A stretch of 64,000 nucleotides of DNA from Escherichia coli (GCF_046105845.1 NZ_CP151004.1), one strand, 5' to 3'. Numbered from the stretch's first letter, positions 19,101 through 28,100 are shown. Notes: generated from the letters alone by a model not told the origin. A program made the numbers and translations.

Positions 19101-22100
19101 GGCAACGATACGCTATCAACCAGGCTATCCAGCTGCCAAATACAAAAGCGGAAAGCATCGCCTGGAATGAAGATCAAAAAGGAATTTATACCGCAACGTA
19201 TACCGCATTACTCCCTGGCACCGGTTTAAAAGCACAGCTACAGATGTCCGGCTGGGCGAGCGCTTTGACTTCAAATGATTACAGTATTAGTGGCGATGCC
19301 GCCAGCGCACAAATTGTCGCGATGCAAGTGACAACGGGTAACCCGGATGTGCTGGCGAATGGCAGCGATCGACATACGGTGAATGTCCGGGTGGAAGATC
19401 AGTTTGGCAATGTGCTGCCGGAGCAGACCGTCACCTTTACGGTGACGAAGGGGGCGGCTGTATTTGCCAATGCAGGGCAGAGCGCAGATATCAGGACGGA
19501 TGCGCATGGCATGGCAGAGGTTGATCTGAGCAGTACCGTAGCGGATGCCAGCACTGTTGAGGCTAAGGTTAATCAAAGCAGCGATAGTAAAACGGTGAAC
19601 TTTGTTGCTGATGTTAGCACGGCGCAGGTCGCGGAGCTGGTGGTCATTAAGGATGGTTCAGAGGCGGACGGTTCGACGGCGAACACGCTGCGGGTGAAGG
19701 TCACCGATGCGTTCGGTAATGCGCTTGCCGGCCAGACGGTCAGCGTGACGGCAGACAATGGCGCAACGGTGTCTCCGACGGTCACCACGCAACCGGACGG
19801 TACGGTGGAGATCAGTGTCACCAGCCAGACGGCGGGAGTCAGTGCAGTCACCGCCAGCATCAACAACAGCAGCCAGAGCCGGGATGTGACGTTTATCGCG
19901 GATGTCAGGACGGCGAAGATCGCGGACCTGGTAGTCACCCGGGATAACTCAGTGGCAGACGGTGCAATGGCGAACACGCTGCGGGTGAGGGTCACAGATG
20001 CGTTCGGGAATACGCTTGCCGGGCAGACGGTCAGCGTGATGGCAGGCAACGGCGCAACGGTTGCCCCAACGGTGATTACAGAGCCGGACGGCACGGCGGA
20101 GATCAGTGTCACCAGCCAGACGGCGGGAGTCAGTGCAGTCACCGCCAGCATCAACAACAGCAGCCAGAGCCGGGATGTGACGTTTATCGCCGATATCAGG
20201 ACGGCGCAGATCGCTGATCTGGTGGTCATTAAGGACGGCTCAGTGGCAGACGGCGTAATGGCGAACACGCTGCGGGTGAGGGTGACGGATGCGTTCGGTA
20301 ATGTGCTTGCCGGGCAGACGGTCAGCGTGATGGCGGACAACGGCGCAACGGTCACTCCGACGGTCACCACACAGCCGGACGGCACGGTGGAGATCTTTGT
20401 CACCAGTCAGACGGCGGGCACCAGTGCCGTCACTGCCAGCATTAACAACAGCACCCTGAGTCAGAACGTGACATTTATCGCCGATGTCAGGACGGCGAAG
20501 ATCGCAGACCTGGTGGTCATTAAGGACGACTCAGTGGCAGACGGTGCAATGGCGAATATGCTGCGGGCGAGGGTCACCGATGCGTTCGGTAATGCGCTTG
20601 CCGGACAGACGGTCAGCGTGTTGGCAGGCAACGGTGCCACGACTGCTCCGACGGTCACCACGCAGCCGGACGGCACGGTGGAGATCTCTGTCACCAGCCA
20701 GACCGCCGGAACCAGTGCGGTCACCGCCAGCATCAACAACAGCAGCCAGAGCCGGAACGTGACGTTTATTGCCGATGTCAGCACGGCGAAGATCGCGGAC
20801 CTGGTGGTCATTAAGGACGACTCAGTGGCAGACGGCGCAATGGCGAATACGCTGCAGGTGAAGGTGACCGATGCGTTCGGGAATACACTTGCCGGGCAGA
20901 CGGTCAGCGTGACGGCAGGCAACGGCGCAACGGTTGCTCCGGTGGTCACCACGCAGCCGGACGGCACGGTGGAAATCAGTGTCACCAGCCAGACGGCGGG
21001 GGTCAGTGCAGTCACTGCAACCATCAACAGCAGTACTCAGAGTCAGAACGTGACATTTATCGCCGATGTCAAGACGGCGAAGATCGCGGATCTGGTGGTC
21101 ATTAAGGACGACTCAGTGGCAGACGGTGCAATGGCGAACACGCTGCGGGTGAAGGTCACCGATGCGTTCGGTAATGCGCTTGCCGGACAGACGGTCAGCG
21201 TGTTGGCAGGCAACGGTGCCACGACTGCTCCGACGGTCACCACGCAGCCGGACGGCACGGTGGAGATCTCTGTCACCAGCCAGACGGCAGGCACCAGTGC
21301 GGTCACTGCCAGCATCAACAGCAGCAGCCTGAGCCGGAACGTGACGTTTGTTGCCGATGTCAGGACGGCGAAGATCGCGAGTCTGGAGGTGACGCAGGAT
21401 AACTCAGTGGCTGACGGCGCAATGGCGAACACGCTGCGGGTGAAGGTCACCGATGCGTTCGGGAATGCGCTGAATGGACAGACGGTCAGCGTGATGGCGG
21501 ACAACGGCGCAACGGTTGCCCCGACTGTCATCACAGGGCAGGATGGCACGGTGGAGATCAGTGTCACCAGCCAGACGGCGGGCACCAGTGCGGTCACCGC
21601 CAGCATCAACAACAGCAGCCTGAGCCAGAGCGTGAAGTTTATTGCCGATGTCAGCACGGCGCAGATCGCGAGTCTGGAGGTGACGCAGGATAATTCAGTG
21701 GCTGACGGCGCAATGGCGAACACGCTGCGGGTGAAGGTCACCGATGCGTTCGGGAATGCGCTGGGCGGGCAGACAGTCAGCGTTTTGGCAGACAACGGTG
21801 CCACGACTGCTCCGACGGTCACCACGCAGCCGGATGGCACGGTGGAGATCTCAGTCACCAGCCAGACCGCCGGAACCAGTGTGGTCACCGCCAGTATCAA
21901 GAACAGCACCCTGAGCCGGGACGTGACGTTTATTGCGGATGTCAGGACGGCGCAGATCGCGAGTCTGGAGGTGACGCAGGATAACTCAGTGGCTGACGGC
22001 GCAATGGCGAACACGCTGCGGGTGAAGGTCACCGATGCGTTTGGTAATGCGCTTGCCGGGCAGACGGTGAGCGTGTTGGCAGGTAACGGTGCCACGACTG

Positions 22101-25100: not shown

Positions 25101-28100
25101 ACAACAGCAGCCTGAGCCGGAACGTGACGTTTGTCGCCGATGTCAGGACGGCGCAGATCGCTGATCTGGTGGTCATTAAGGACGGTTCAGAGGCAGACGG
25201 TGCGACGGCGAACACGCTGCGGGCGAGGGTAACCGATGCATTCGGTAATGCGCTTGCCGGGCAGACGGTCAGCGTGTTGGCAGGCAACGGTGCCACGACT
25301 GCTCCGACGGTCACCACGCAGCCGGACGGCACGGTGGAGATCAGTGTCACCAGCCAGACGGCGGGGATCAGTACAGTCACTGCAACCATCAACAACAGCA
25401 CCCTGAGTCAGAACGTGACATTTATCGCCGATGTCGGCACGGCGCAGATAGCGAGTCTGGAGGTGACGCAGGATAACTCAGTGGCTGACGGCGCAATGGC
25501 GAACACGCTGCGGGTGAAGGTCACCGATGCGTTCGGTAATGCGCTTGCCGGCCAGACGGTCAGCGTGACGGCAGACAATGGCGCAACGGTGTCTCCGACG
25601 GTCACCACGCAACCGGACGGCACGGTGGAGATCAGTGTCACCAGTCAGACCGCCGGAATCAGTGCGGTCACCGTCAGCATCAACAACAGCACCCTGAGCC
25701 AGAACGTGACATTTATCGCTGATGTCAGGACGGCGCAGATCGCGGATCTGGTGGTCATTAAGGATGGTTCAGAGGCGGACGGTTTGACGGCGAACACGCT
25801 ACGGGCGAGGGTGACCGATGCGTTCGGTAATGCGCTTGCCGGGCAGACGGTCAGCGTGTTGGCGGACAACGGCGCAACGGTCGCCCCGACGGTCACCACG
25901 CAGCCGGACGGTACGGTGGAGATCAGTGTCACCAGTCAGACGGCGGGGATCAGTACAGTCACTGCAACCATCAACAACAGCACCTCGAGCAGGAACGTGA
26001 CATTTGTTGCCGATGTCAGGACGGCGCAGATCGCTGATCTGGTGGTCATTAAGGACGGCTCAGTGGCTGACGGCGCGACGGCGAATACGCTGCAGGTGAA
26101 GGTCACTGATGCTAACGATAATACGCTTGCCGGGCAGACAGTCAGCGTGTTGGCGGACAACGGCGCAACGGTTGCCCCGACGGTGACCACAAAGCCGGAC
26201 GGCACGGCGGAAATCAGTGTCACCAGCCAGACGGCGGGCACCAGTGTAGTCACCGCCAGCATTAACAACAGCAGCCAGAGCCGGAACGTGACGTTTGTTG
26301 CCGATGTCAGGACGGCGCAGATCGCTGATCTGGTGGTCATTAAGGACGGCTCAGTGGCTGACGGCGCGACGGCGAATACGCTGCAGGTGAAGGTCACTGA
26401 TGCTAACGGTAATACGCTTGCCGGGCAGACAGTCAGCGTGTTGGCGGACAACGGCGCAACGGTCGCCCCGACGGTCACCACGCAGCCGGACGGCACGGTG
26501 GAGATCATTGTCACCAGTCAGACGGCAGGCACCAGTACAGTCACCGCCAGCATCAACAACAGCAGCCAGAGCCAGAACGTCACCTTTGTACCTGGTGATG
26601 CATCGCAGCTCACTTCAACCGTTGAAACAAATAAGTCGAACTATACGGTTGGAGAGACAATCACCATCACGGTAACGCTCCGGGATGCGTTCGATAATCT
26701 GGTAACCGGTGCAGCTTCACAGCTAGCCGCTAATGGTGTGCTGACGGTGGCTGGCACCGACCCGTCAGAAACGGGAAGCTGGGTTGAATCAGGTGGCGTG
26801 TATACCACAACCCGAATGGCGACGATTGCCGGTACCAATCAGCACGCCAACCTGCAATTGCAGACGTGGAGTGATGGCGTAACGTCAGATCGCTATGACA
26901 TACAGTCCGGTTCTCCGGCGCAAGCCACATCAACTATCGCCACGGATAAAAACGCATACACCGCTGGCGAGACCATAACCGTCGCCGTGACGCTGAAAGA
27001 CGCGCACGGTAACCTGGTTGAAGGGGGCGAGTCCTTACTGTCTGGTGATAACGTAATAGTGGAAGGAGCCGTACGTTCAGGAGGATGGTCTGAAAACGCC
27101 GGTGTTTATACTGCTACATGGTCGGCGCAAATGGCGGGAGACTCTCACCACGCGACGCTGAAGTTGTCTGAGTGGGGCAGCAGTAAACAATCAGAGAGTT
27201 ATTCCATCCACAGTGGTGCTCTGGTGCAGGCAAATTCAGCCATCAGGACAGATAAATCGGCATATATCGCCGGGGAGCCATTAACCGTCACAGTAACGTT
27301 ACGGGATGAGTTTGGTAACCCTGCTTTAGGGCTGACATCAGAAGTCATCGAGTCTTATATCGATAATTTCGCGGTAGGCGGCGCAACTCCCGATTCTCTG
27401 CAGTGGGTCGAGCAGAATAATGGTGAATATACCATTGTCTGGACAGCATGGGTTGCCGAGGAAAATCTGGTTGCCAGTCTGAAATTAAAAACATGGGGAA
27501 CGGAGATTAAGTCCTCATTATACGGGATACAACCAGGTGCGGCGGCAAAATCTCAATCCACGATAGTCACGGACAAAACGAAATATATCGCTGGGGATAG
27601 CATAACGGTGACCGTTGTTCTTAAAGATGCCCAAGGTAACTTTATTACTGATGGTGTTGTTCAGCTTAATGAGGAAAACGTACAAGTCAGGAACGCTGAT
27701 TCTATTCAAGGCAATAATTGGATATACAATGGCAATGGGCAATATCAAAGACAGTATATGGCACATTTTGCGGAAGCGAATTTGAATGCGCAACTGAAGA
27801 TGGCGGGTTGGGTCGATGCCAATTATTCAAAAAGCTACACTATTAACAGAGGTGAAGTAAGTAAGTTTCGTTCACAGCTTCGTATACACGAACTTTTAGT
27901 GGTAGCTGGGGCGGATATACCTGTCAGTGTTTTATTAGCTGATGAATTTGGCAATCCTGTGAATGACGGTCTGGATTTGCTGACAGATGATGCAGTGTAC
28001 TTACAAAATGTGGAAAAGAAACATTGGTCCAGTTGGACATTTGTAGGTGATGGCAGATATGAGCGTACCTATATGGCCTACAAAGAAGGAGAAAACTTAA

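Follow-up and report, generated by a model that had tools for sequence, protein, structure and literature searches.

A mosaic array of 24 tandem immunoglobulin-like units in the Escherichia coli adhesin IatC, varying in length between lineages

Among the proteins that share the inverse (type Ve) autotransporter architecture and the Big_1/Invasin_D3 fold, invasin and intimin (Yersinia InvA, 1CWV; enteropathogenic Escherichia coli intimin D00-D3), InvD/InvE and FdeC carry 2-5 diverged, non-repeated immunoglobulin (Ig)-like domains and have no array at the DNA level. YrIlm/YrInv of Yersinia ruckeri and Bap of Acinetobacter are large adhesins that, like IatC of E. coli (also named Air or EaeX), contain tandem Ig-like modules that repeat at the DNA level and vary in number by strain. 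Goh et al. 2019 (PMC6714894) described IatC of strain SMS-3-5 as surface-exposed and biofilm-promoting and, from four alleles of 2459-2965 amino acids (aa), reported "no evidence" of variation in tandem-repeat number. Mutants of eaeX in enteroaggregative E. coli (EAEC) 042 show reduced adhesion and biofilm formation (earlier study cited by Fox et al. 2020, PMC7058095), and variation in Big-repeat number in EaeX was itself published in 2020 (Fox et al., PMC7058095). More broadly, Periscope Proteins, exemplified by SasG/Aap, Rib/alpha-C and Sgo_0707, have repeats of >50 aa with >=80% identity, and inverse autotransporters are included in the class (Whelan et al. 2021). Here we analyse the iatC allele found in a stretch of 64,000 nucleotides (nt) of E. 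coli DNA (GCF_046105845.1 NZ_CP151004.1; the window, with positions counted from its first letter), which encodes 24 tandem Ig-like units. We consider it very probable that this array is the repetitive Ig stalk of IatC, reshuffled and varied in length by homologous recombination between its units.

The array occupies positions 19595-26578 on the plus strand and measures exactly 24 x 291 = 6984 bp, read as 24 in-frame units of 97 aa with zero indels, as an earlier note on this DNA had described it. Tandem Repeats Finder reported it at 19610-26587 (period 291, 24.0 copies, 86% matches, 0% indels, score 9196); all 24 units start with V[TNKM]F[IV]AD, and the repeat ends at 26579, where the residues become VTFVPGD. 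The same note spoke of high nucleotide identity and near-identical units, which was overstated: in the identity matrix of the 24 units, pairwise nucleotide identity ranges from 77 to 97% with a median of only 85%, amino acid identity ranges from 73 to 97% with a median of 82.5% (neighbouring units average 82%), no two units are identical, and identity is independent of distance along the array. Variable sites number 133 of the 291 in a unit, to which the first, second and third codon positions contribute 27, 38 and 68; 109 of them are biallelic and 79 are informative biallelic sites. Every variant cassette that had been singled out (ADLVVIKDG/D vs ASLEVTQDN; RVKV, RARV and QVKV; VSAVTAS and TSAVTAT) was found, in combinations that differ among units. 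Long open reading frames (ORFs) on the minus strand within the array were considered as genes and rejected as by-products of the stop-free repeated frame.

Statistical tests and individual events both demonstrate that variants have been exchanged between units. In the window array, all four gametes occur at 60% of informative site pairs, r2 drops from 0.26 at distances of <=5 bp to 0.04, and a permutation test like the pairwise homoplasy index (PHI) gave p < 0.001. Linkage is equally short-ranged among 216 distinct units, where r2 falls from 0.22 (1-3 bp) to 0.10 (4-6 bp), 0.03 (21-30 bp) and 0.007 (>150 bp). When compared with the same unit position in 251 units of 14 other arrays, only 4 of the 6984 array bases are private alleles, and reconstructing a window unit takes on average 5.7 exact segments of other arrays, vs 20.4 for a simulated linkage-free unit. 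The best colinear match to the whole array among 5426 complete genomes is nonetheless only 88.1%. A private array in each lineage, almost without new mutations, is explained by the shuffling of a common variant pool.

Single events could be read directly from iatC loci of other complete E. coli genomes (labelled L001, L002 and so on; 18 were verified directly). Unit 20 of L001 is a one-unit indel chimera, composed of L002 unit 20 (0-106) and L002 unit 21 (154-290), and unit 2 of L010 joins L002 unit 2 (0-99) to L002 unit 15 (83-290), a deletion of 13 units that takes the array from 25 to 12. A further pair, L013 and L015, is separated by the clean gain or loss of 2 units within a junction of 120 identical bp. 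Conversion tracts are also visible: in L002 a patch of ~55 bp (unit 10 251-290 plus unit 11 0-14) has exactly the sequence found in units 19/20 of that array, and a second patch, in unit 24, matches unit 19. Over 12.4 kb of flanking sequence L002 and L010 differ by 1 base and L013 and L015 by 0, while their arrays differ by 13 and 2 units, respectively; the indel rate of the array is therefore at least as high as the point-substitution rate of the flanks. The suggestion in the earlier note of ongoing intragenic recombination or gene conversion is thus upheld by the four-gamete result, the decay of linkage, the permutation test, the chimeric junction units and the conversion patches. Two flank comparisons were left unused as artefacts of alignment, namely the apparent 2324 differences between L001 and L002, produced by a 21-bp indel, and ungapped C-terminal flank identities of 0.71-0.72, produced by a 12-bp indel.

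Within an array, exact in-register repeats typically reach 76-320 bp at their longest, and 696 bp in the extreme case. Among the arrays examined, exactly duplicated units were confined to L003, where one unit stands at the non-adjacent positions 4, 9 and 11 and the 696-bp exact in-register repeat is found, and L011, which has one adjacent pair of identical units; these look like recent duplication or conversion. The sole canonical Chi sequence (GCTGGTGG) of the 20-kb island lies at 19636-19643, in the AELVV codons of unit 1. The heptamer CTGGTGG, a 7/8 match to Chi, occurs in 12 other units, always in the ADLVV cassette and in one orientation, and is missing from ASLEV-type units. Chi enrichment as a driver of recombination was set aside, with one canonical Chi only and all 12 heptamers accounted for as ADLVV cassette codons.

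Copy number varies widely between lineages. Array length was read from the span of joined matches to a query consisting of the island with its array deleted, and units were counted in records drawn at even intervals from the 757 that matched. The census gave arrays of 11 (2 records), 12 (1), 14 (2), 15 (5), 16 (11), 17 (5), 18 (2), 19 (11), 20 (8), 22 (1), 23 (1), 24 (1) and 25 (2) units; a few sampled loci were disrupted, by an insertion sequence (IS) element, a deletion or a frameshift. The intact loci that were fetched carry 11, 12, 14, 15, 15, 16, 17, 18, 19, 19, 20, 20, 22, 23, 24 and 25 units, and in intact genes, measured between the same anchors, the array is always an exact multiple of 291. 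The 24 units of the window are close to the top of this range. The earlier note had named a single repeat number in all isolates as the outcome that would speak against a copy-number hotspot, and complete genomes instead span 11-25 units, with differences of 2 or 13 units where 12.4-kb flanks differ by 0-1 base; as a statement about variation between lineages, the hotspot stands. One intact gene (L017; NZ_CM129848.1, strain TB06052) is without the left anchor and has ~14 units. Its array (2497-6570) begins ~1.1 kb earlier than all others, and the gene lacks several of the unique Ig domains that elsewhere precede the repeats, which suggests that an array unit recombined with an upstream diverged Big_1 domain; RefSeq names this gene simply "Ig-like domain-containing protein".

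The units evolve under purifying selection with tolerated variation. The ratio of nonsynonymous to synonymous change (dN/dS) among units is 0.29-0.30, with pS ~0.28, and a diversifying signal is absent. Identity between units is 0.853 within an array vs 0.850 between strains, and the median is 0.84-0.86 in every array examined, from 11 to 25 units. Since units within one array are as different as units from different strains, an array samples a shuffled, species-wide pool and is not homogenised, and classical concerted evolution was accordingly rejected. Identity between neighbours (0.8565) is marginally higher than after permutation of the units (0.8526; p = 0.01), the opposite of what avoidance of similar neighbouring domains would produce, and that idea was discarded as well.

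Sequence comparisons identify the 4190-aa ORF as IatC (= Air/EaeX). The coding sequence lies at 16157..28729 on the plus strand (12573 bp) and matches the NCBIfam model NF040978 (Ve_IatC_Nterm) with 3205.8 bits vs a cutoff of 2400, over positions 1-1065 of 1065, whereas for none of the intimin, YrIlm, Ilp and SinH models is the respective cutoff reached. The YrIlm N-terminal model matches the barrel region with 411.9 bits vs a cutoff of 750, so the window protein is not a YrIlm member. The N-terminal 3.4 kb is matched in 754 of 5426 complete E. coli genomes, with 95-99% identity in 740 of 755 matching records. RefSeq calls the product of the orthologous locus "inverse autotransporter adhesin IatC" or "EaeX/Air", a choice that follows no obvious rule. 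The outer-membrane beta-barrel translocation domain is found at 16601..17425 (+; aa 149-423), where Pfam IAT_beta (PF11924) matches with E = 2.8e-108 over model positions 3-279 of 279. Ahead of the array lie six Ig-like domains (Big_1/Invasin_D3) that are diverged and not repeated, at 17765..19594 (+; aa ~537-1146; Pfam matches at aa 537-633, 639-727, 744-837, 843-918, 950-1022 and 1056-1150). Each array unit corresponds to one Big_1 Ig-like domain (E = 7.7e-20 for one unit), with a structural boundary shifted by ~10-13 aa from the register of the earlier note. The array thus lies, as that note had proposed, inside an adhesin. Beyond it, diverged Invasin_D3-like domains occupy 26579..28183 (+), with matches at residues 109-183, 212-285, 316-389 and 421-503 of a fragment starting at 26288. 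The distal tip, at 28184..28726 (+), consists of an Invasin_D4-like domain (PF21764, E = 1.4e-12) and a C-terminal region of ~120 aa. Because the C-terminal 716 aa (26579-28726) fall into discrete E. coli allele classes, at ~98, 93, 90, 81, 78, 73 and 60% identity, the presumed binding tip is also polymorphic; a 12-bp indel in the C-terminal part separates many loci.

Structure prediction agrees with the domain assignment. An AlphaFold model of two units (predicted local distance difference test score, pLDDT, 83.5; predicted template modelling score, pTM, 0.63) is all-beta and forms two beta-sandwich domains, its top fold matches being tandem Ig domains of intimin (D0-D1), invasin, InvD, InvE and FdeC. 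Among solved structures, Yersinia invasin 1CWV is the nearest in sequence (E = 1.2e-16). Variable residues alternate along predicted strands, at unit residues 14/16/18, 33/35 and 82/84/88.

We propose that the N-terminal beta-barrel would reside in the outer membrane and display a passenger of ~35 Ig-like domains, 6 of them unique, 24 repeated and ~5 unique, a chain that would hold the distal Invasin_D4/lectin-like tip away from the cell. With one unit equal to one Big_1 domain, each unit gained or lost should therefore alter how far the tip extends by the length of one Ig domain, or roughly 3.5-4 nm if the rise per unit resembles that in the 18-nm five-domain rod of invasin. Unequal crossing-over in register, or slippage, would add or remove whole units and leave chimeric junction units, and short gene-conversion tracts would transfer patches between units. 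Conversion and crossing-over, combined with exchange between strains, would shuffle an old, species-wide pool of mostly two-state variants, comprising ~40% of unit sites, near linkage equilibrium. The enzymes involved would presumably be those of the RecA pathway, restrained by 15% divergence and by mismatch repair.

Several observations weigh against parts of this proposal. The window array and its exact unit order are known from one assembly, the best colinear match being the 88.1% cited above. TM-scores of the two-domain model against solved structures are mostly 0.43-0.53, reaching 0.70 for InvE alone, and together with the pTM of 0.63 this makes a "rigid rod" a tentative reading; we infer both the rod geometry and any functional effect of length, whether on adhesion, reach or immune evasion. 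Our Pfam scan detected neither a LysM nor a C-type lectin domain, although a LysM domain N-terminal of the barrel and a lectin-like tip have been reported for IatC/EaeX from InterPro or ScanProsite (PMC6714894, PMC7058095), and the C-terminal region is C-type-lectin-like according to Goh et al. 2019 (PMC6714894). Finally, single spans of 16, 19 or 20 copies recur across many records, and Big-repeat number differs between sequence types (STs) and is conserved within ST69 (Fox et al. 2020, PMC7058095). Length change is therefore infrequent on epidemiological timescales; copy number does not look like a fast switch and is stable within lineages.

Recombination between units must also be weighed against explanations that dispense with it. 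A mosaic of this kind might arise by recurrent or convergent point mutation at tolerant sites, with two states kept at each by selection. The predominance of biallelic sites (109/133), the conservative nature of many changes and the very short range of linkage (r2 of 0.10 at 4-6 bp), which site-independent processes could mimic, are all compatible with such a history. We regard it as extremely improbable, and largely refuted by direct events. Third codon positions make up 68 of the 133 variable sites, linkage does fall with distance (PHI-like p < 0.001), and real units need far fewer donor segments than simulated site-independent ones. Seven clustered differences in one unit match a 46-bp tract elsewhere in that array, and the junction units are clean two-parent chimeras. 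Alternatively, the cassettes could be a device for antigenic or functional variation comparable to pilE/pilS, vlsE or msp2, with selection for new epitopes as the primary force and length as a secondary effect. The protein is surface-exposed, its array differs in each lineage, and the alternation of variable strand residues is as expected for one face of a sheet. A dN/dS of ~0.3 reveals no excess of replacement changes, however, and no diversity-generating retroelement, silent-cassette system or silent donor locus is annotated in the island. Identical arrays are present in many isolates of the same lineage (also Fox et al. 2020, PMC7058095), and equal identities between and within arrays suit neutral shuffling of a common pool. 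We judge adaptive diversification of this type to be very unlikely. A further idea concerns what maintains the pool: unit identity of ~85% and a shared set of variants could be a maintained set-point and not a passing state, with ~110 common two-state sites held near linkage equilibrium species-wide and almost no private mutations. Selection may keep the pool of polymorphism, and with only short exact tracts available RecA and mismatch repair would seldom delete a long stalk; avoidance of co-misfolding between neighbouring identical domains could be another benefit, and very-short-patch repair of heteroduplex DNA could make the fine-scale mosaic. We think this unlikely, but if true, the set-point would be an evolutionary regime distinct from that of the homogenised, near-identical repeats of classic Periscope Proteins.

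It could also be argued that mis-assembly, through collapse, expansion or a chimeric consensus, produced the 24-unit array or the mosaic order of its units, and draft assemblies do routinely break inside the array. A protein-database search with two units returned 904 matches, the best 120 of which are nearly all "partial" E. coli proteins of 225-340 aa, mostly on contigs of ~0.7-1 kb; with the C-terminal 716 aa as query, all matches were partial fragments, ~1250 aa long at most, ending at contig edges and representing up to 1166 member sequences. That the best matches are "partial" proteins in their hundreds, from orphan contigs of ~1 kb, bears out the expectation in the earlier note that short-read assemblies commonly mishandle such arrays. 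Even some complete genomes contain frameshifted or truncated arrays (L007, 812 bp; L016, 2480 bp), which could not be tied to relatives at >=98% identity, were left out of the interpretation and may be low-quality assemblies, and the modest colinear match to the window array in complete genomes points the same way. Nevertheless, the window array is in frame and an exact multiple of 291, with no identical units and only 4 private bases, and 16 intact arrays from other complete genomes are alike in median unit identity (0.84-0.86). An identical array was recovered in the independently sequenced isolates L006 (Taiwan) and L019 (Sweden) under one protein accession, WP_021551985.1, and one 17750-bp span is common to 11 sampled records. 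The window array is unique because its strain background is divergent, the housekeeping flanks reaching at most 98.0-98.7% identity to other genomes. An assembly artefact is, on this evidence, highly improbable. Orphan repeat fragments of iatC are misnamed "acylphosphatase" in NCBI (among the matches P0026, P0052, P0079, P0165, P0182, P0186, P0205 and P0211), and some have Klebsiella pneumoniae, Salmonella enterica or Shigella as their recorded source, which probably reflects contamination of draft assemblies or mislabelling.

With recombination between units as the preferred explanation, the relation of this allele to described systems can be stated more exactly. Both the gene and its chromosomal site are those of EcSMS35_4024 of SMS-3-5 and air of EAEC 042, in the selC-B/eip island. 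Compared with the four alleles of Goh et al. 2019, the window allele is longer, with 24 units and 4190 aa; it differs from known IatC alleles in its unique unit order and in an unusually divergent strain background. Repeats of YrIlm are almost identical according to Goh et al. (PMC6714894), in contrast to the 85% mosaic seen here, and the non-repeated domains of invasin, intimin, InvD/InvE and FdeC are 16-30% identical to the unit. Like Periscope Proteins, IatC is a single-chain surface protein with tandem folding domains whose number varies through homologous recombination, and with a distal functional domain; surface attachment and the distal domain are, for the window protein, predicted from the beta-barrel and the order of domains. 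Its 97-aa units, with a median identity of 82.5%, lie at the lower edge of the definition of Periscope repeats, and variation in number is evident from the range of 11-25 units and from differences of 2 and 13 units between near-identical flanks. Classic Periscope Proteins have repeats that are 90-100% identical, well above the medians of the window units (82.5% aa, 85% nt), and IatC arrays further differ from them in being without within-array homogenisation and in a number that is stable within lineages. We found no mention, in the literature searched, of near-absent private alleles, a very short range of linkage or equal diversity within and between arrays. On these points our results add detail to a phenomenon that was already described; they do not establish a new type of feature.

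The genomic context of iatC is that of annotated genomes. The gene order is nepI, iatC, eilA, SipD/SipC/SipB-like genes, a chaperone gene and yicS, which places iatC in the eilA-eip (selC-B) island between nepI and yicS, close to tRNA-Sec. The HilA-family regulator eilA (28779..30476, minus strand) was identified from ORFs and from identical gene order in L001 and other loci, and the eip type III translocator and chaperone genes run from eilA to ~35740; in EAEC 042, eilA regulates genes of the selC locus (earlier study summarised by Fox et al., PMC7058095). The 5' end of eilA carries an imperfect 24-bp tandem repeat (30371-30421; 2.2 copies, 82% matches). The tRNA-Sec gene (selC) is at 40221-40315 on the minus strand. 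In L001 a rhuM pseudogene fragment is annotated beside selC, within a few bases of coordinates corresponding to ~40029-40315 of the window, and would have been left behind by an older island that had used this classic site of integration. At 13878-14544 (minus strand), between yicN and nepI, a RelE/ParE-family toxin (119 aa) and a helix-turn-helix antitoxin (107 aa) are encoded; genomes such as that of the K-12 derivative BM28 lysU align across this region in two pieces with ~800 bp less covered, and the pair looks like an accessory insertion.

The housekeeping flanks (1-15900, with uhp, adeD, adeQ and nepI; 40000-64000, with yicI, spoT, recG and ligB) are at most 98.0-98.7% identical to any of the 5426 complete genomes, and the best matches originate from sediment or soil. 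The lineage of the source strain seems to be without a close relative in that set. Within iatC, the regions flanking the array are 98.4-99.2% identical to other strains, and the 5' region is nearer to some strains (99.2%) than are the housekeeping flanks, a hint that the island has been exchanged.

The variability described here bears on how iatC is read in genome surveys. Genomic studies of E. coli routinely count IatC/Air/EaeX among the virulence-associated adhesins, and the main length polymorphism of the protein lies in the array. Because short reads cannot resolve it, calls of presence or absence and of a "partial gene" are often artefacts. The array could act as a lineage marker.

For the biology of the adhesin, the stalk spans at least 11 to 25 Ig domains and changes by whole units, so that natural isolates provide an allele series in which the effect of stalk length on adhesion through O-antigen or capsule could be addressed. 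The array also offers a clean case of recombination among repeats that are 85% identical.

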